IMG/VR virus record: IMGVR_UViG_3300031460_000005
Coordinates: 1-32,523 of that record
Strand: one strand, 5' to 3'
Source: a virus
Lineage: Duplodnaviria > Caudoviricetes
Length of the DNA stretch: 32,523 bases
Both the position numbers and the translations under genes were made by a program. A model generated the notes under the pieces. The model saw nothing but the letters and a program-made list of their open reading frames with translations. It did not search any database and was not told the origin of the DNA. This document shows, piece by piece, positions 3,237 through 23,284 of this stretch. Each line of letters opens with the position of its first letter. Within the stretch, counting starts at the first letter, position 1.

Positions 3237-3554
3237 GTGAGCATGACGAGCGCGGCGGGCACGACCACTCCTGGCGCCGCACGGCGCGCGCCGGCGACGG
3301 TCCACATCACGGACGCCGGCTGCCGGCTGCACGTGCGCGTGACGCATCCCAACCGTGCGGCGCAGGATGACGCCAGGATGAGCTTTAGGAGCTGCTTCCC
3401 GCGCCACGGTCAACGCGTCTGGCTTGCCGGCGACCCGACGGCGAAAGAGCCGCGCGGCTGCTGGTCGATCCCGCGCGCGGCCTGGCGCATGTTGGAAGCG
3501 TGGGCCGTGGGGCAGGGCTACCGCGTGGTGTGGGCCGATGCGGATGAGGCCTGA
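3237..3554 (+). CDS. Hypothetical protein
   Basis: Fills the gap before TerS; Trp-containing globular-looking C-terminal half. Confidence 0.5.
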   Translation: MSMTSAAGTTTPGAARRAPATVHITDAGCRLHVRVTHPNRAAQDDARMSFRSCFPRHGQRVWLAGDPTAKEPRGCWSIPRAAWRMLEAWAVGQGYRVVWADADEA

Positions 3555-3571
3555 GGGCGAAGGCAACGGTG

Positions 3572-4261
3572 ATGGCGAAAAAACTTCCCAAAACTGCCCA
3601 TGAATCTGCTCCCCTGTCGGGGCATCGGGAAGAGGCCGCACAACTCGTGGCTGCCGGTCGCCTCACCCTCGACGAGATCGCTGAACGGATGAACGTGACG
3701 CGACGCCAGCTCTACACATGGCGTCAGCAGCCGGAGTTCACGGCGCGCGTCGACGCGATCAACGCCGCGTTTGCCGAGGAAACGGGGCGCTACGCCATCG
3801 CCCAGCGCGCCCGCCGCGTGGCCGCGCTCGACGATCAGCGCCGGCGCCTTGCACGCATCATCGACGCACGGGCCGCAGCCGTCAGCGCCGCTGACCCCAC
3901 GCACGACCCGCTGTGTCTGGGCACGTTCCGTTCGGCGGCGCTCGCGGCCGGCTTCGACACCGGGTTCGTGACGCTGGAGTGGGCCACGACGCCAAAGGGC
4001 GGCTTCCGCCCCCAATTCAAAGTCGACGTCGGGCTCTCGGCCGAACTGCGGGCGCTGGCGAAACAGGCCGCCCAGGAGCGTGGCGAATGGGTCGACAAGG
4101 TGGCGCCGACAACGCCTGACGGGAACGCATCCTACACGCCTCTTGATTACTCCCGGTTGAGTGAGGCGCAAGCGCATGAGTACGAATCTATTCTCGCGTC
4201 ACTTCTCGACGAGGGAGGGGATTCAGGCGGAGATGGACAGGTTCCAGGCATGGAAGGCTAG
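3572..4261 (+). CDS. terS: Terminase small subunit (N-terminal HTH)
   Basis: EAAQLVAAGRLTLDEIAERMNVTRRQLYTWRQQPEF HTH; C-terminal DYSRLSEAQ motif; directly upstream of and overlapping TerL. Confidence 0.8.
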   Translation: MAKKLPKTAHESAPLSGHREEAAQLVAAGRLTLDEIAERMNVTRRQLYTWRQQPEFTARVDAINAAFAEETGRYAIAQRARRVAALDDQRRRLARIIDARAAAVSAADPTHDPLCLGTFRSAALAAGFDTGFVTLEWATTPKGGFRPQFKVDVGLSAELRALAKQAAQERGEWVDKVAPTTPDGNASYTPLDYSRLSEAQAHEYESILASLLDEGGDSGGDGQVPGMEG

Positions 4262-5696
4262 CCAGTCCCTCTACGAGTTCATGCGCCAGGCCTGGCCCAT
4301 CGTGGAGCCCGCCCGCCCCTTTATCGACGCGTGGCATTTACGCGCCATCTGCGCACACCTTGAGGCCGTGACGGACGGCCACATCCGCAAGCTCCTCATC
4401 AACATCCCGCCTGGCCATGCCAAAAGTTTAGCTATTGCTGTGTTCTGGCCCGCGTGGGAATGGACGCGCTATCCCGCGCGCCGCTGGTTGTTCTCGTCGT
4501 ACGGACTCTCCCTGTCCGTGCGTGACAGCGTGAAGTGCCGGCGCATCATCGAGTCGCCGTGGTACCGCGCGCGCTGGGGCCACGTTTTCGCGCTGCGCGA
4601 CGACCAAAACGCCAAGCTCAAGTTCGAGAACGATAAGACGGGCTACCGTCTCTCGACCTCGGTGGGCGGGGCGGTCACGGGCGAACGTGGCGACCGCGTG
4701 GTGGTCGACGACCCGCACAACATGCTCGAGGTCGAATCGGACGTGCGCCGCCAGGAGGCGTTGACGTGGTGGGACGAGGCGATGAGCACGCGCCTCAACG
4801 ACTACCATACGGGCGCCCACATTATCGTCATGCAGCGCCTGCACGCCGACGATCTCACCGGCCATGTCCTCGCGCAGGGCGGCTACGAGCACCTCTGTCT
4901 TCCGACCGAATACGATCCGGCCACAACAAAAGCGACGGGGATCGGTTTCCACGACCCGCGCACCGAGGACGGTGAGTTGCTGTGCCCCGCCCTCTTCGGT
5001 CCCGACCAGAACGCCGACGCGAAGGTGCGGCTCGGTCCCTATGGCTACGCCGGCCAGCATGGGCAGCGCCCATCGCCGCGCACGGGCGGCATGATCCCCA
5101 TCGATAAATTGGAGATCGTGGACGCCGCGCCCGTCGTCGCACACCGCGTTCGTTATTGGGATAAGGCTGGAACGCAGGGTGGTGGCGCGTACACGGCCGG
5201 CGTGTTGATGGCGCGTGACCACGCCGGCGTCTACTACATCGAGGACGTCGCGCGGGGCCAGTGGGGCGCGGACGCGCGCAACGCCGTGATGCGCCAGACG
5301 GCCGAGACCGACGGCGTACGGGCGCAGGTCTGGGTCGAGCAGGAGCCGGGCTCGGGCGGCAAAGAGTCCGCCGAGATCAGCGTCAAGTTATTGGCCGGCT
5401 TCGTCGTGCAGATCGAGCGCGTGACTGGCGAGAAGGCGGTGCGCGCGACCCCATTCGCGGCGCAAGCGCAGGCAGGCAATGTCCGCCTCGTGCGCGGGGC
5501 CTGGAATCGCGCGTTCCTCGACGAGGCGCGCGACTTCCCCGCGAGCACATACAAAGATCAGATCGACGCCGCCGGCGGCGCGTTCAACAAGCTGGCCCTG
5601 GCCGTCGCCGGACGCCAGCCCGTCCCGACCGCCGCCGCCCCGCGCCCCATCGTCGACGCCGCGCGCGACCAGTACCGCCGCTTCGGCGTCCGTTAG
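4176..5696 (+). CDS. terL: Terminase large subunit
   Basis: Walker A INIPPGHAKS, Walker B VVVDDPH, IIVMQR coupling motif, nuclease RYWDKA and KDQIDA. GTGAGG RBS before ATG 4176. Confidence 0.97.
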   Translation: MSTNLFSRHFSTREGIQAEMDRFQAWKASQSLYEFMRQAWPIVEPARPFIDAWHLRAICAHLEAVTDGHIRKLLINIPPGHAKSLAIAVFWPAWEWTRYPARRWLFSSYGLSLSVRDSVKCRRIIESPWYRARWGHVFALRDDQNAKLKFENDKTGYRLSTSVGGAVTGERGDRVVVDDPHNMLEVESDVRRQEALTWWDEAMSTRLNDYHTGAHIIVMQRLHADDLTGHVLAQGGYEHLCLPTEYDPATTKATGIGFHDPRTEDGELLCPALFGPDQNADAKVRLGPYGYAGQHGQRPSPRTGGMIPIDKLEIVDAAPVVAHRVRYWDKAGTQGGGAYTAGVLMARDHAGVYYIEDVARGQWGADARNAVMRQTAETDGVRAQVWVEQEPGSGGKESAEISVKLLAGFVVQIERVTGEKAVRATPFAAQAQAGNVRLVRGAWNRAFLDEARDFPASTYKDQIDAAGGAFNKLALAVAGRQPVPTAAAPRPIVDAARDQYRRFGVR

Positions 5697-5726
5697 CACA
5701 GACAGCCGGAGAGGGAGGTCGCGCCG

Positions 5727-5984
5727 ATGGCCAGGACCTCTACTACGGCGTCCAAGCCACAAGCGGCCCCCGCGTCCTCCGGCACGACGGGGACAGGCCG
5801 CGAGATCGTCAGCACCGTCACGGTCGGCGGGTCGCCCGCGCCCACCGGCGCCGGCCGGCGCGGCTCCAGCGGGGGCGGGATGGGCTCTCGCCTGCCGGCC
5901 TCACGGGCCACGCTCACGGCCGGGGCGCGCGATGAGTACGTCGCGGGCAGCCCCGTCAACGCCTACGTCAATTATGCGCCCTAG
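5727..5984 (+). pseudogene. Orphaned original 5' end of the portal gene (intact 85-aa ORF)
   Basis: Occupies the portal position after terL with RBS GGGAGGT. Ends DEYVAGSPVNAYVNYA-P*, 12/16 identical to portal DEYVAGSPLNLYSAYA-Q at 7372-7422. Confidence 0.85.
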
Positions 5985-6415
5985 ACAATAACATCTTTGG
6001 ATTCATTATCTAGCCATTCGTAGAACTCATCGCCCGTCATCGTTGTTACCTGCCCGTCTGACTCCAGCTTCACGTGCGACAAGATGTATCCTGAGCGCGG
6101 CCGATAGCCGCGCCCCGGCCCCTTGCCCCAATCTAGCTGGGTTGTATACCACCCCGGACGAGGGGCGCCGTTGACCAGGACATCCGATTCGTCAACGGGT
6201 CGCGCCTGGACGCTCACGTAGCCTGGATCGGACCATGGGACGTACTCAACGCGCTCGACGAATAGTCGTCCCGACGCCGTGCGGAACAAATCGTACGCTG
6301 CGATTCGACCGCCCTCATCGGTGAAGGGGAACGGGTCCGCCTCGCAGGGCGTGTCGTTTGTGACCGTGGCTTGTGCCCCGCAGCAGGTGCAAATCATGGT
6401 GTGCGTGTGGCTCAT
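5981..6415 (-). CDS. Hypothetical passenger protein (N-terminal CTCC)
   Basis: ATGA overlap with the HNH stop and GGAGAAAGG RBS; stop overlaps the orphan ORF stop in CTAG. Confidence 0.7.
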   Translation of the reverse strand: MSHTHTMICTCCGAQATVTNDTPCEADPFPFTDEGGRIAAYDLFRTASGRLFVERVEYVPWSDPGYVSVQARPVDESDVLVNGAPRPGWYTTQLDWGKGPGRGYRPRSGYILSHVKLESDGQVTTMTGDEFYEWLDNESKDVIV

Positions 6416-7173
6416 TGGGTTATCCTTTCTCCCCCAGGCGCGCGGACGCTTCTGTGTCGTTTGCCGGGCGGGCGGTGGGGTACACCAGCCTCGCGGGCGA
6501 TCAGTTGCACGCGCTTTACCGTCAGGCCCATGGCGTCGGCTATCTCTGACATGAAAACATCTGCCGCGCGCTGCTCCCTAACATAGAGTTTCTGCCGATC
6601 CGCGTATGTCAATGACGGGTCGGGGTAGCGCGCGAGCAGCATCAGCCCCGCGTCCTGCTTGCGCGAGATGCCCAGATCGACCGGGTTATCCACGTGTTTC
6701 CACGTCAACCCCCTGATCGCACACCGCATGTTGTGCTCGGTGATGTCGTGGCGCGCGGCCAGATCGGCTATGGTCACGCCGCCCTGGCTATACTCCGCAC
6801 GCAAGCTACGCACCAGGGGCGTCGTGAGCTTGGACCGTGCGTTCGCTTCCCCAATGTGATGTGGGCGCGCCGACCGGCCCTTCGCTGCCTTATCGCGCAT
6901 ATTATCCGCATGGGTCCCAAGAAAGATATGATCGGGATTGTGGCAGCGACGATAGGTGGTATCACCTATCGGATAGTTCTTATCGCAGGTGTGGCACGCG
7001 AGCAAGCCGTCCGGGATCGGGCCGTACTTAAGTTCGTACGCCGCGCGATGCACGAGATACTTCCGGCCCTTGAAAGACACCTCGCCGTATCCACCCGCGT
7101 TGATGAAGCCGGTCCATAGGCAGCAGCCGCGCGTCCGCTTGGTGTCCGCGTTGATTCGCGCTTTCAGGTCCAT
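6412..7173 (-). CDS. HNH homing endonuclease with two C-terminal HTH-like DNA-binding modules
   Basis: CCLWTG...GYG...VHRAAY...HTCD...CHNPDH...GTHADNMRD is a phage HNH_3-type core; GEANARSKLT...WKHV module; MSEIADAMGLTVKRVQLI HTH; AGGAGG RBS. Confidence 0.92.
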   Translation of the reverse strand: MDLKARINADTKRTRGCCLWTGFINAGGYGEVSFKGRKYLVHRAAYELKYGPIPDGLLACHTCDKNYPIGDTTYRRCHNPDHIFLGTHADNMRDKAAKGRSARPHHIGEANARSKLTTPLVRSLRAEYSQGGVTIADLAARHDITEHNMRCAIRGLTWKHVDNPVDLGISRKQDAGLMLLARYPDPSLTYADRQKLYVREQRAADVFMSEIADAMGLTVKRVQLIAREAGVPHRPPGKRHRSVRAPGGERITQ

Positions 7174-7189
7174 TTAGCGTCATCCTCCT

Positions 7190-7242
7190 ACGGTTATTGT
7201 ACCGCGTGCAATTGTCAAGCTGCACGCTATTATCAACAGAGG
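7190..7242. promoter_or_regulatory. Divergent promoter region between HNH (-) and portal (+)
   Basis: TACAAT on - strand (7196-7201), TATTAT on + strand (7228-7233), inverted repeat GCGTGCA-N10-TGCACGC (7204-7227), RBSs on both strands. Confidence 0.55.
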
Positions 7243-7248
7243 TTGACG

Positions 7249-8904
7249 ATGCCTGATGGTACTAAGGGCGCTGTTATCACGAGCACGCCGACTATACCGG
7301 CGTCCCCCGTAAAGCATGCGGGAGTGGGGAGAACCCCGGCCAGAAAGGTCCGGATTTCCGCATCGGGGAGCGACGAATACGTTGCAGGTAGCCCTCTTAA
7401 CCTCTATAGCGCTTATGCACAGTCGCTCCCCGCCTACATCGATGACATCACGCGTGACCTCGGCCTCGACGTGTACCGCAAGATGCTGTGGGACGACGCG
7501 GTGGCCTCGGCCATCGGCACGCTGCAGAGCGCCGTCCTCGAAGATGGCGCCCACCTCACGTCGGCCATCGCCCAGAAGGACGATTCCGCCTTCGATAAAG
7601 CCGCCACGTACACGGCGGACGCCGAGCGGATGCTGGCCGACCTGGAGACCCCACTGGGCGCGGTGCTGTGGGACATGACGCGGGCGTTTGCCTACGGGCA
7701 CAGGGTCGCCGAGCAGGTCTACGCGCTCGACACCTCGCCCACGACGAAGAAGCGCCAGCTCACGCTGCGCGCGCTCAAGGTGAAGCCGGCCCGCGCCACG
7801 GCCTTCGTCGTGGACCCGTTTAACAACGTCCTCGGGCTCCTGGGTGTCATTCCTGGCGTGGGCCTGCCGGTGCAGCAAGGGACCATGCTGCTGGGCGACC
7901 TGGCGCAGGTCCCGAACCTGATCCCGCGCGAGAAGTTCGCGATCTTGACCATCCGGCCTGAGGACAACGACCCGCGCGGGACCTCCTTGCTACGGCCGGC
8001 CTATTGTGCCTTCTACGACAAAGTGTCATTGGCCCCGGAGTTCATCAAGTTTTTAAGCAGTTTTGGCACGCCGTCGATCGTGGCCCATACGGCCGAGGGA
8101 GCGGGCCTTCAGTACGAGACGGACGTCGTGACGGGGCAGCCGATCACAACCCCTGATCCGGTGACGGGGCTACCCGTGCCGCTGCTGCGCGATCCCCTCC
8201 ACGAGCTGACGCTGGCGTTGACCAACCTGCGCAACAATTCGATTCTGGCGCTCCCATTCGGGGCCGACGCGCGTGTGATCGAGAGCGCCGCCGACGGCTC
8301 GACGTACCTGGAAGCGTTCGATCGTTTGGACCGACGCATCACGCAAGCTATTTTGTACAACACGCTGTCCTCGCTGGAGGGCAAGCACCAGACCCGCGCC
8401 AGTTCGGGGACGCACGAGAACCGCTTCGAGACCCTCGTGAAGCAGCTCAAAGAGTTCGTCACGTCGATGATCCGGCGCGACATCCTGCGCCGCTATCTGA
8501 TCCTCAATTATGGTCAAGAGGCCGCGCGCCTGACGCCGCTGGTGAGCCTGGGCGCGCCGGCCAAAGAGGACAAGACAGAGCGGGGCAAGATGTATGTGGC
8601 GGCGGGCTACCGCGTCGGGCGCTCGCAGTTGGCGAAGATCGACGAGGACCTCGGCGCCCCGGAGCGCGACCCCGACGAAGACCCAATTCCGGCGGGCGAG
8701 ACCGTGCAGTTGAAGGGCGCGGCCGAGGGGGCCGTGGATGAGGCCCCGGCGACCGACGGCGATAAGGCGGATGACGCCGGTAGCGACGGAGGCGATGGAG
8801 GCGACAATGGCGGGGGTGGTGGGACCGGGACGGCGCAACCCGTTAAGGGCAAACGCGCGGCCAAAAGTAAGGCAGGTGTGGGCAAGGGAGGAAGCAGTGG
8901 CTAA
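7249..8904 (+). CDS. Portal protein, DUF935/Mu gp29-like
   Basis: VYRKMLWDDAVASAI, AFAYGHRVAEQVY, PRGTSLLRPAY...FGTP and ITQAILYNTL...GTHEN motifs; position after terminase; AGAGG RBS before ATG 7249. Confidence 0.88.
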   Translation: MPDGTKGAVITSTPTIPASPVKHAGVGRTPARKVRISASGSDEYVAGSPLNLYSAYAQSLPAYIDDITRDLGLDVYRKMLWDDAVASAIGTLQSAVLEDGAHLTSAIAQKDDSAFDKAATYTADAERMLADLETPLGAVLWDMTRAFAYGHRVAEQVYALDTSPTTKKRQLTLRALKVKPARATAFVVDPFNNVLGLLGVIPGVGLPVQQGTMLLGDLAQVPNLIPREKFAILTIRPEDNDPRGTSLLRPAYCAFYDKVSLAPEFIKFLSSFGTPSIVAHTAEGAGLQYETDVVTGQPITTPDPVTGLPVPLLRDPLHELTLALTNLRNNSILALPFGADARVIESAADGSTYLEAFDRLDRRITQAILYNTLSSLEGKHQTRASSGTHENRFETLVKQLKEFVTSMIRRDILRRYLILNYGQEAARLTPLVSLGAPAKEDKTERGKMYVAAGYRVGRSQLAKIDEDLGAPERDPDEDPIPAGETVQLKGAAEGAVDEAPATDGDKADDAGSDGGDGGDNGGGGGTGTAQPVKGKRAAKSKAGVGKGGSSG

Positions 8905-9118
8905 GGACGCTCGGATTGACGAGATCCGCGCCGCCGTGGTGTGCCCCGCGTGCGCCTTCCCGGCCCCGGTCCCGGCCGGGTCATCGGTCGCCGTCTGCCA
9001 GTGGTGTCACGCGGTCATCCGCGTGCCCGTCATCCCGACGTGGCCGCCGGTGGCGCGGACTAGCCCCGACGAGACCCTGACGACGCGGCCAGAGCTGCGT
9101 GTGGAGTCAGAGCCATGA
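8897..9118 (+). CDS. Small zinc-ribbon protein
   Basis: GTG start overlapping the portal stop, GGGAGG RBS; CPAC...CQWC. Confidence 0.6.
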   Translation: MAKDARIDEIRAAVVCPACAFPAPVPAGSSVAVCQWCHAVIRVPVIPTWPPVARTSPDETLTTRPELRVESEP

Positions 9119-9489
9119 TAACGCTGTGTGACCGCGTGTGGGCCGATGGCTTCGAGCGGCGTGTCGCGGCGGCTATCGAGCGGTTGAAGCGGGGCGGGTA
9201 CGTGCCGGTGACGCCGTTAGGGTCACCGCCTCAGGGTGAGCCTGCCCTCGCGCCCGCATCACCACCGCGCTGCTGGCGTTGCGGAACGACAGCGGAGGTG
9301 TCCGCTGTGACCATCCACATAAGCGGCGGGGACGCGCGGCATCACCATCTGTGCTGGACCTGTCGGGTCGCGTTGGGCGCGCTGATCACCCTTTTCTTGA
9401 ATGGGCGTTGTTTCACCAGCAGACCTGGCCCGTACACTCTCACGCCTGGTCCCTATGAGCCGATACTCCATGCGCAGGCAGACCCGTAG
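9115..9489 (+). CDS. Hypothetical Cys4 zinc-finger protein
   Basis: ATGA overlap with the previous gene; CWRC...CWTC. Confidence 0.55.
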   Translation: MITLCDRVWADGFERRVAAAIERLKRGGYVPVTPLGSPPQGEPALAPASPPRCWRCGTTAEVSAVTIHISGGDARHHHLCWTCRVALGALITLFLNGRCFTSRPGPYTLTPGPYEPILHAQADP

Positions 9490-9493
9490 ACCC

Positions 9494-9922
9494 TTAGTCA
9501 CCCCGGATCTGTCTAAGCCCCTCGACCGTATCGAGTTGATCAATCTCAGACTCAACGGGTTGACCGTCGATGGGCGGCGGCGGGTCGATAGGCCAGCCGG
9601 GCCACGCGTTGAAGAGCGCGTCGATGTTGTGCAAGCCATCGTTGGTGTTGGTCGGGTCGATCATCACAGCATCCTCGGTCTCGTGGCCGCGTCCGTCGAT
9701 GAGATGGAGTGATGTCACCAGTCCCGTCGTCAAGCCGACGGCGACAGCGGAGCCATAGATCAGGCGACGCGCGTCATCTGGCCCCACGTACACAGTGGCA
9801 TCCGCGGGATACCCCGCCCCAGGCCAGTGATGCGTGTCGCCGTACGGCTTGACGAGCCCGATCGCGATCACGTCAGGACCGATCTGCTTTTTCGTGGCAA
9901 CAACATACCGCGGTTTGTCCAT
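9494..9922 (-). CDS. Hypothetical protein (weak DUF3892-like resemblance)
   Basis: AGGAGGG RBS and TGATG coupling to the upstream gene; YVVA...DPTNTNDGLHNIDAL pattern. The family call is weak. Confidence 0.6.
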   Translation of the reverse strand: MDKPRYVVATKKQIGPDVIAIGLVKPYGDTHHWPGAGYPADATVYVGPDDARRLIYGSAVAVGLTTGLVTSLHLIDGRGHETEDAVMIDPTNTNDGLHNIDALFNAWPGWPIDPPPPIDGQPVESEIDQLDTVEGLRQIRGD

Positions 9923-10647
9923 CAGTCCCTCCTGAGCGTGTAGAGCCCGCTCGGCTGCAAATCGAACACCAGGGGCGGCGGTTCCGGCGCGAACTCCAGA
10001 CCATCGTCGTCCGACAGCGTGGCGCTGTCGTCGCCCCCATACATCGGCGCGGCCTCGAAGAGCGCGCGGATCTCGCGCGCGGATAGGGCGTCCAGATCGA
10101 GGTCGTCGGGCCAGTCGATGGTGGCGACGTACACGAAGAGGCCATGCGGATCAGTGTTATCATCGTCCATAACCAATTCGACGTTCCCCTGTAGCAGGTT
10201 GAGCGTGCAGGTGTGCTCGTCGTAGAAGTACCGCTGACCATAGCCCACTTTATCTGAGGCGAGGCGACGGCCGGAAACGATGAGACGCCCGGCGTCAGTC
10301 ACCGGGAAATAGAGCATCGTCAGCGTGTCCACATGGTCATAGGCGGGATCGCGCTCCACCGCGACGCGGGGGACGATGTTGCCGGGCTTCAGGGCGGGCC
10401 AGAGATCCTCGTACGTCACGGTGACACGGTAGCCCGCGCCGCAGTCGTCACAGACCCACGGCCCGACGGACTGTGAGCGACCGCGATACCGGATCTTGTC
10501 CTCCTCGCTGTAGAGGTGGTCGATGCGCCCGGCCTTTTCGCCGCACGCGGGGCAGGCGACATACAGGCGCATCTCAGCGATGATCCGGGCGCCGCTCGGC
10601 TCTATCACCGGCCGCGTCAGGTCGATGGTCGCATCATCGTCAGTCAT
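9922..10647 (-). CDS. Hypothetical zinc-ribbon protein with acidic tail
   Basis: Start MTDDD at 10647 overlaps the upstream gene end; CPAC...CDDC and FYDEHTC; GC3-rich codons on - strand. Confidence 0.7.
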   Translation of the reverse strand: MTDDDATIDLTRPVIEPSGARIIAEMRLYVACPACGEKAGRIDHLYSEEDKIRYRGRSQSVGPWVCDDCGAGYRVTVTYEDLWPALKPGNIVPRVAVERDPAYDHVDTLTMLYFPVTDAGRLIVSGRRLASDKVGYGQRYFYDEHTCTLNLLQGNVELVMDDDNTDPHGLFVYVATIDWPDDLDLDALSAREIRALFEAAPMYGGDDSATLSDDDGLEFAPEPPPLVFDLQPSGLYTLRRD

Positions 10648-10894
10648 TCGTTGCGTTCCCCGCACTCTCCGGGAGCGTCGCCCGCATGCGCGCCTGCCCC
10701 CGCTCGCTCTGCCAGTAGGCCCATTCCTGGCGGCTGGACGCCACCTGCATCCCGCGCGCGTCGGGGTGTGGCCGGAAGTGGACGCTCCACGCGGCGCCCA
10801 CCATGGCACCGCCGTACAGGCACGACACCTGGCACACGGCTAGGCCGGCGGCCTGTATCGCGCGGGCCAATTCCACCGCATCGTCGAAGCTCAT
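10640..10894 (-). CDS. Hypothetical protein
   Basis: AAAGGGGG RBS and ATGA overlap with 10891-11154. Confidence 0.6.
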   Translation of the reverse strand: MSFDDAVELARAIQAAGLAVCQVSCLYGGAMVGAAWSVHFRPHPDARGMQVASSRQEWAYWQSERGQARMRATLPESAGNATND

Positions 10895-11154
10895 CGGTCC
10901 CCCTTTCGCTCGAAACACCAGCGCGTCGTCATCCCGTCGCGCTGCTCCACCAGGACCGCCTCGTCGGGAGCGATGGTGGTGTGCAGGAAGTAGGCGGCGG
11001 CCATCGCCTCGATGTAGCCACGCCGTTGGTCGAGCTGCGCGGTGACGCCCTCATGGAACGCGGCAATCGCCGCGTCGAGCGCGTCCAGGGACGTTTGTTC
11101 GGCCTCGCCAATCGGCCGGCTATAGCCGCGTTGCAGCAGCGGGATGTTGTCCAT
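10891..11154 (-). CDS. Hypothetical protein, first gene of the antisense operon
   Basis: Purine-rich GAGGAGGAGAGGG leader before ATG; GATACT -10-like box at 11181-11186 on - strand. Confidence 0.65.
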   Translation of the reverse strand: MDNIPLLQRGYSRPIGEAEQTSLDALDAAIAAFHEGVTAQLDQRRGYIEAMAAAYFLHTTIAPDEAVLVEQRDGMTTRWCFERKGDR

Positions 11155-11216
11155 AATCCCTCTCCTCCTCTCCTGTCCACAGTATCACCGATGCGTCTTG
11201 TCATGAGGAGGCCTGC

Positions 11217-22579: not shown

Positions 22580-22609
22580 GTGACACGTGGTAGGTGTTTA
22601 GGCTATCAT
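22580..22609 (+). promoter_or_regulatory. Candidate moron promoter
   Basis: GTGACA-N18-TATCAT, 45 nt upstream of ATG 22655. Confidence 0.45.
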
Positions 22610-22654
22610 GCTTTACACAGCCCGTTCACAGCCAGGGAGAAAGGGGACTGGGAC

Positions 22655-23284
22655 ATGCACCGAGGGAAACGGACAATCGCGGCTGGGGTGATCGTCGCGC
22701 TCGTGGCGCTCCTGCCGGGATTGGCGCACGCACAAACGCGCTCATCAGACTATAATCTCGGCTACTGGGCCGTGACGTGTCGCCTCCAGTGGCAAGGCAG
22801 CGACGAGACAATTACACTGGGCTCGGATGGAGGATGGGCGCGCACGGCGTGTGACGCGATCGCCGGGAATACATCGCCCGACAACCAGTATGTCTATTAC
22901 CCTCTGACCCAACCGCGCCCGGGCACGGTCCAGTGCGCGTACATCTACACCTACGGCGGCTACTGGCTCACCGAACGGCCACCCTATCAGGGGTACACGG
23001 GCTCTGCGCAAATCGCAGTGCGGGATGACGATGGTTCACCTGTCGGGCAGGCGGCGTGCTCCAGCGTGGGCGGACAGGCGGACGCGTTCAATAGCAATCA
23101 CGGGTTCAATATCGCCGACAATCCGCTAGCGCCCATTCAAGAATGCACCCAGTGCGGTGGTGGTGGCGGTGGCGGCGGCGCTCCGGTCACAGGGAGCCTG
23201 ACCACCAGCCTGCCAGGGGCGCCGAAGGCGAAGCATCCGCACAAGAAACCACCGGTCTACGTCAACGGCAAACGCAAGAAGTAA
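22655..23284 (+). CDS. Secreted Cys-containing moron protein
   Basis: Signal peptide MHRGKRTIAAGVIVALVALLPGLAHA|Q, six Cys, Gly linker, Lys-rich tail; lower GC; AAAGGGG RBS. Confidence 0.8.
   Translation: MHRGKRTIAAGVIVALVALLPGLAHAQTRSSDYNLGYWAVTCRLQWQGSDETITLGSDGGWARTACDAIAGNTSPDNQYVYYPLTQPRPGTVQCAYIYTYGGYWLTERPPYQGYTGSAQIAVRDDDGSPVGQAACSSVGGQADAFNSNHGFNIADNPLAPIQECTQCGGGGGGGGAPVTGSLTTSLPGAPKAKHPHKKPPVYVNGKRKK

Follow-up and report, generated by a model that had tools for sequence, protein, structure and literature searches.

Homing endonucleases in essential phage genes are usually presumed to require an intron, an intein or a split protein. A route into an essential gene that needs none of these is described, in the accessible parts of the sources, for the WHO elements at yeast FBA1, which have a LAGLIDADG-zinc-finger enzyme of proven cleavage and a hypervariable target (PMC7282813; bioRxiv 10.64898/2026.08.13.744650). 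Here we analyse a comparable arrangement in a tailed virus (Duplodnaviria; Caudoviricetes; IMG/VR record IMGVR_UViG_3300031460_000005), of which the whole 32,523-nt stretch is referred to below as the window. A 1,441-bp cassette interrupts a Mu-type portal gene in the window after codon 84. It holds an antisense I-HmuI-like HNH gene, a passenger gene, an AT-rich spacer and a low-GC replacement for the portal 5′ end with its own ribosome-binding site (RBS) and ATG (Table 1). We conclude, with a probability of roughly 0.75, that the cassette is a homing element that replaces the portal 5′ end without splicing; its nuclease would cut, at the insertion site, portal alleles that lack the cassette. 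That the cassette has this anatomy, with no splicing involved, is highly probable.

The cassette works like a WHO element without being a member of that group: its enzyme is of the HNH_3 type and its place is a phage portal 5′ end. As in WHO elements, so far as the published portions at hand describe them, an essential gene would be entered without splicing, a diverged copy of a gene end is carried, the old end is left as a fragment and the target is variable. WHO elements are also transcribed independently, sometimes in antisense orientation. They differ in that they replace a 3′ half and form clusters in yeast nuclei, whereas here a phage portal 5′ end is replaced and cleavage by the HNH protein is predicted; unlike the WHO case, exchanging a 5′ end further calls for an RBS of its own and probably for a promoter. 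The fungal mitochondrial mORF hybrids (Allomyces atp6; Glomus atp6, atp9, cox2 and nad3; PMC3630166) likewise combine an endonuclease with a foreign gene part and orphan the native part, and in the sections available the native piece is closer to relatives than the inserted piece (PMC3630166; PMC7315562), as here. They differ in that the duplicate lies at the insert's upstream end and replaces downstream sequence, in their LAGLIDADG or GIY-YIG enzymes and in residing in organelles. A model for Tremella has loss of the element leaving a hybrid gene (available part of PMC7315562). A diverged in-frame copy of a gene end and a native fragment that matches empty alleles, which belong to the WHO/mORF-type organisation, are both found at this locus. 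The integrative elements of dusA (IMEVchUSA3) and prfC (SXT) are comparable in another respect: in the portion of the source at hand, they enter the 5′ end of a gene and bring a new promoter as well as a diverged N-terminal sequence, that of the dusA element being 61% identical over 35 residues (bioRxiv 10.1101/2021.06.18.448947). Those elements are integrase-driven and excisable, whereas this cassette has no integrase and would spread by predicted nuclease-triggered gene conversion. By analogy, the strategy has precedent in yeast WHO elements and fungal mORFs for 3′ ends, and in the dusA/prfC elements for 5′ ends.

Intronless endonucleases near essential phage genes are familiar from T4 (seg and mob), from Aeh1 nrdA (mobE) and from gene 60 (mobA) (PMC2988022), and as I-HmuI-like HNHs in Skunavirus (PMC12724721). 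In the available text, free-standing phage HNHs further resemble this one in having a DNA-binding tail, in resistance through an alternative allele, and in embedded host promoters that lock the gene in. They differ in sitting between genes or splitting a gene into coding parts; a duplicated replacement start with an orphan is not among the arrangements described there. The accessible parts of six sources on phage endonucleases (PMC2988022, PMC10448857, PMC12724721, PMC7344957, PMC9957025 and PMC8351571) cover intron, intein, intergenic and gene-splitting forms and describe no duplicated replacement start. The literature searched, which included few subscription papers and excluded supplements, yielded no phage precedent for one.

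Table 1 Features of the invaded portal locus and its upstream neighbour (positions in the window)
Feature	Position	Strand	Basis
Cassette	5978..7418	.	Absent from 8/9 distinct related loci; empty joints in 7/8 runs examined
Likely RBS of the original portal start, GGAGGT	5714..5719	+	Sequence; kept in L001, GGAGGG in L002
Orphaned original portal 5′ end, 84 codons then P and stop	5727..5984	+	84/84 aa identical to the start of intact P0002
Left junction, TTATGC common to both junctions	5972..5977	+	Sequence and relatives
Right junction, TTATGC	7413..7418	+	Sequence and relatives
Passenger gene, 144 aa; start overlaps the HNH stop (ATGA); allele-variable	5981..6415	-	70% identical in L032
HNH endonuclease, 253 aa; His-Me nuclease domain (~1-101) and two helix-turn-helix (HTH)-like domains	6412..7173	-	PF13392; model
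AT-rich spacer, GC 0.48	7174..7248	.	72/75 nt identical in L032
Replacement portal 5′ end, ~57 codons, low GC at third codon positions (GC3), in frame with the body	7249..7418	+	Sequence comparison
Native portal body	7419..8904	+	PF06074, E 4.6e-35; 94-96% identical to close empty alleles; PDB portal folds, best E 4e-15
Large terminase, upstream neighbour	4161..5696	+	PF17289; phrog_38, E 2e-79

A preliminary description of this locus had read it as a splicing-free insertion into an essential gene, tolerated through the replacement N-terminus that it carries, and the empty relatives described below support that reading. The duplication stands as first described: the 85-aa open reading frame (ORF) 5727-5984 ends in DEYVAGSPVNAYVNYAP and a stop, and DEYVAGSPLNLYSAYA lies in the portal that starts at 7249, exactly 1,441 bp downstream, with 12 of 16 residues identical. 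Six of the eight DEYVAGSP codons differ synonymously between the copies, five of these toward A/T in the portal copy, and both the antisense HNH gene and the minus-strand passenger are present in between. Similarity had also been claimed further upstream. Overall, the likeness of ORF 5727 to the first 57 portal residues is strong (score 96, z 11.7, reached by 0 of 2,000 shuffles); upstream of EYV alone it is weak (score 39, p = 0.06). Joining 5979 to 7421, as had been proposed, does leave a single frame open for 578 aa, as long as the P0002 portal, a natural empty allele, but the TTATGC shared by the two junctions is the better placement of the joint. Departure from the window sequence in independent invaded alleles occurs after 5977 (metagenome run X4) and after 5979 (run X8). 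Nor is the replacement 5′ end well described as recoded: the cassette does carry its own copy of the portal start, but as a diverged homologous copy, with 41% identity to the old start across residues 7-57. Codons with G or C at the third position make up 76 of 86 in ORF 5727; within the portal, GC3 rises from 0.57 over codons 1-58 to 0.84 beyond them (Fisher p = 3e-6).

Apart from L023, which is the window's own record, nine distinct loci belonging to two portal lineages were recovered by scanning viral and metagenome contigs (L026, L029 and L034 duplicate L001 or L002). Of these, L032 alone is invaded; the other eight (L001, L002, L024, L025, L027, L028, L030 and L031) are empty. P0002 (578 aa), the closest homolog of the portal, matches ORF 5727 residue for residue over 84 positions and then runs through RSLPAY into the body. 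Insert-free relatives had been predicted to equal ORF 5727 joined to the body, which is the structure seen in P0002, P0181 and P0185 and at loci L027, L028 and L030; a portal using the 7249 start without the HNH occurs in none of the nine distinct related loci. Occupied and empty alleles of the same portal gene coexist and differ by exactly the 1,441-bp cassette. A census of portal starts took in 29 proteins listed in the five nearest clusters (two of the 17 members of one cluster were unlisted, and two short proteins were set aside). Among the full-length portals listed, the native start is found in 23 of 27 and the replacement start in 4 of 27. All four replacement starts are in frame with the portal body; each of these portals has an orphan start of equal longest-contig size, and three of the four have an HNH likewise. 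Further candidate invaded sets are linked by such equal longest-contig sizes: P0182, P0205 and P0183 (17,835), P0212 and P0193 (16,559), P0211 and P0090 (4,779), and P0208 and P0089 (6,141).

The second invaded allele, L032, has the same order as the window: terL, orphan, passenger, HNH (97% identical), replacement (86%) and body. Its orphan carries a TAT to TAG nonsense codon two codons before the junction, and over 60 codons the window and L032 orphans differ by this and four synonymous changes. Orphans show three different tails, those of the other invaded alleles ending in YVN or NYALL before the stop. In the HNH gene, the codon changes between the window and L032 comprise 15 synonymous and 7 non-synonymous, and HNH motifs were intact in all four proteins checked. 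The first 45 body bases of L032 have no differences to empty L027 and L028 and nine to the window; those of the window are nearest L001 (four differences), and the window's left arm is nearest L030 (one in 179). The cassette is therefore on different portal haplotypes, since the L032 body matches L027/L028 and that of the window is nearest L001.

Eight of 24 listed metagenome runs (X3-X10) were examined, as assembled contigs only. An empty joint was present in seven of the eight. The left junction of an invaded allele was bridged in X3, X4 and X8, and both forms occurred in X4 and X8, the depths of the two forms in X4 being 168 and 53.5. A joint 5948>7390 occurs in X8, on a contig of 246 nt at depth 10.5; exactly 1,441 bp are skipped, and five letters are common to both sides. 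This hybrid combines the old start with the diverged target and lacks the HNH, which is the product expected from a crossover between the duplicate DEYVAGSP copies. Among seven empty alleles, variation is highest around the junction, where 60 nt contain 28 variable sites compared with an average of 11. The associated p of 0.0026 (maximum window over 1,380 nt, codon shuffles) is a guide only, because mosaic haplotypes are not independent draws. Two further observations concern target sequences. In the empty allele of L024 (L024:3100-3140), the target reads VQLYAAYA, like the replacement's LNLYSAYA but in high-GC codons, and X8 also has a joint 5957>7429; in a second portal lineage, the intact P0199, P0200 and L031 read QIWANYA, like LLWANYA of the replacement portal P0203. 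By their sequences, the L024-type and QIWANYA alleles may be older hybrids or resistant alleles.

The HNH product matches PF13392 (E 5.6e-7, Pfam) and PHROG HNH families, and its structure model is confident (predicted local distance difference test, pLDDT, 89.8). The best fold matches (VIA-align) are I-HmuI (1u3e; Z 8.1, root-mean-square deviation 2.4, 82 aligned) and I-PpoI (Z 6.8). HTH matches follow the nuclease domain at residues ~111-173 and 177-238, so that sequence and model point to the domain order of I-HmuI-like enzymes, an N-terminal His-Me finger nuclease followed by HTH DNA-binding domains. Within the HNH gene, a 9-pair hairpin at 6950-6971 (plus strand) falls in the segment that encodes KNYPIGDTTYRR, which P0090 and P0091 lack. 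Eighteen viral loci retrieved through the HNH or P0091 were distant, with no portal-body similarity in their fetched flanks. The passenger has no Pfam or PHROG match, and its best Atlas score is only 0.77. In X4 and X8, the passenger is mostly different sequence. Its 5′ part (6302-6415) is conserved and the remainder is 70% identical or replaced, a pattern that suggests an exchangeable C-terminal domain. One weak match to the passenger, in L009, runs antisense to an ORF resembling a methyltransferase and was dismissed as chance.

The replaced part of the portal is, in the structure model, a structured and conserved piece: residues 11-60 are modelled with beta-strands at pLDDT of 83-92, and 65 of 88 portal homologs have an EYV-type motif within their N-terminal 120 residues. 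A plain downstream restart would therefore lose the EYV motif. A comparison with 65 homolog N-termini revealed no donor of the replacement start, the best outside score being 46.

A similar case occurs in a second lineage, with portals 56-59% identical. The start of P0203 is unlike that of its seven cluster mates, and an HNH protein, P0091 (51%), and an orphan, P0210, which breaks after YVNYARSL, have the same 80,615-bp size as P0203, one contig each. The two replacements are not significantly alike upstream of EYV, implying either an old element or a second capture.

Taken together, these alleles suggest a cycle. Given coexisting empty and invaded alleles, the HNH would, in a mixed infection, nick or cut a long site spanning ...AATTATGC/N in empty alleles. 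Repair would then copy the cassette, guided by homology to the old 5′ end on the left and to the portal body on the right, and the recipient's start would become the orphan. Each invaded junction keeps half of the putative site, the left one followed by foreign DNA and the right one preceded by the diverged copy; both junctions would resist cutting, because each retains half of the site only. The portal would be translated from 7249, and careless deletion of the cassette would remove the only working portal start, locking the cassette in. A crossover between the DEYVAGSP copies would be the likely escape route, giving an HNH-free allele with a diverged site; such a sequence was seen once. Natural DNA shows all the stages expected of a splicing-free cycle, namely empty alleles, invaded alleles on two haplotypes, a decaying orphan, a presumptive hybrid escape and a variable target. 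The value of the locus lies in this nearly complete natural allele series at one site; through it, the yeast WHO model can be tested directly in phages, where a single small enzyme and a set of naturally occurring targets would suffice. A further lesson is that a short ORF in front of a phage gene, commonly labelled a hypothetical protein or an exon, can be the orphaned start of that gene, and that a portal gene may have ends of different history.

A self-splicing intron, with ORF 5727 as exon 1 and the second start as a by-product, would be in keeping with the frequency of HNH introns in phage structural genes and terminases (available part of PMC10448857). We searched Rfam and found no intron family down to E 5 (two weak unrelated matches), and the insert is filled by two antisense ORFs, the 75-nt spacer and the replacement, with little non-coding room. 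Group I introns have an exon-U/intron-G boundary pattern. The cassette boundaries lack it, the L032 stop would fall inside exon 1, and replacement starts that are in frame in four of four cases also speak against splicing; a divergent intron may escape a search of this kind, but we consider an intron very improbable. Equally so is a continuing role for the orphan 85-aa peptide, which would complement or regulate portal assembly in trans, as with the split nrdA of phage Aeh1. The strong RBS it retains, its identity to the start of an intact allele and its mostly synonymous differences from the L032 orphan would fit such a role. However, identity to empty alleles is expected in any case, because each homing event would make the recipient's own start the orphan; moreover, the downstream protein has its own homologous N-terminus and the orphan tails vary freely between alleles. 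We give least credence to the HNH being a packaging helper of the HK97 gp74 or Skunavirus HrdP kind. Its place between terL and the working portal start is that of HrdP in 89 of 89 Skunavirus genomes (PMC12724721, in the part available), but it is absent from eight of nine related loci, is antisense, has 253 aa with HTH tails and is nearest I-HmuI in fold.

Heavy mosaicism, a passenger without assigned function and a nuclease whose cutting is predicted could also fit a moron-like block that does not home. Such a block would have come with its portal start by chance recombination from a divergent phage and spread by recombination or through a benefit of the passenger, the HNH cutting elsewhere or nothing; in T4, the cleavage sites of free-standing endonucleases are often distant from the places where these are inserted (PMC2988022, accessible text). 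We regard this as unlikely, given related HNHs at nearly the same codon in two portal lineages, the variation peak at the junction, and an HNH conserved at 97% next to a passenger that is 70% identical or replaced. Several points nevertheless count against a homing element. These phages are highly mosaic, with terminase and portal blocks swapped, so that the occurrence of the cassette on two haplotypes could stem from ordinary recombination. Cleavage, lack of splicing and the promoter are inferred from the DNA alone. The Foldseek match to I-HmuI is weak (E 0.14), the Z of 8.1 is modest, and a phmmer search of the PDB with the HNH returned no relative. The hybrid is a single contig in one of the eight runs. 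Between the window and L032, the replacement has 8 non-synonymous against 4 synonymous codon changes, no clear sign of purifying selection, and 3 of the 8 fall at the presumed target. The second lineage is joined by matching contig sizes and breaks three codons further on; a single replacement start common to both lineages was rejected as unsupported, the two not being significantly alike upstream of EYV (z 0.4). Finally, a sigma-70 consensus scan of the spacer (7174-7248) gave no site.

The last result does not bear out the divergent promoter that the preliminary description had placed between the copies: the spacer has only two back-to-back -10-like hexamers, TACAAT (7196-7201, minus) and TATTAT (7228-7233), flanking a 6-bp palindrome, CGTGCA-N10-TGCACG, at 7205-7226. 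Each strand has an RBS-like motif, AGGAGG for the HNH gene (7184-7189, minus) and AGAGGT (7238-7243). The promoter role of the spacer is putative. A single sigma-70-like site at 5982-6009 (9/12) was discarded, since 0.5 such sites would be expected by chance.

A profile was searched against 1.84 billion representatives, with 24 matches. Four of them (P0214, P0222, P0224 and P0225), from contigs of 3-51 kb, are complete short proteins that open like a portal N-terminus and lose this likeness no more than ~13 codons from the same motif; we treat them as leads, candidate orphans in more distant portal lineages. P0224 has an intact twin in L037 (L037:2285-3805; 96% over 54 residues) and breaks after the same NY codons. 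Frameshifting of portal sequence does not account for the tail of either P0224 or P0210. A search for viral context of the candidates P0214 and P0222 found none. Five short matches (P0221, P0223, P0227, P0228 and P0229) were dropped, as they look like contig-end fragments. The odds seem to us evenly balanced on a broader proposal, in which the cassette represents a third, splicing-free class of intragenic phage homing element that swaps gene starts. This portal site would then be a long-standing hotspot, with related HNHs in the same 13-codon stretch of at least two, perhaps six, portal lineages, an arms race visible as target hypervariability, and HNH-free resistant hybrid portals left behind. 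If this is true, the portal N-terminal arm evolves through repeated invasion and escape.

The window, assembled as a single contig, is a high-GC tailed-phage region with terminase, Mu-type portal, S49 protease, head decoration protein and capsid genes (Pfam), followed by tail-like ORFs. Public runs carrying the stretch are labelled rock metagenome, and none of the 24 listed is an RNA run. Among GTDB genomes, no portal relative was found (35 pattern matches, none confirmed). The terminase region (window 3543-5631) differs in the close relatives L001, L024 and L025, where only the last ~22 terL residues match, and the L002 terminase matches at 40% over ~100 residues; the portal bodies of these four loci are 94-96% identical. 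We conclude that the terminase module is swapped directly upstream of the homing site. Between portal and protease (8890-11200) lie several small ORFs of unassigned function, one of them antisense (9494-9922), and parts of this region are missing from L001 and L002. In L039, an antisense ORF that looks homing-endonuclease-like by eye (L039:2771-3460, minus) lies directly behind the 3′ end of a distant portal gene. Further along the window, a moron-like 234-aa ORF (22580-23284, plus) with a signal-peptide-like start sits between the likely tail chaperone and tape-measure genes.

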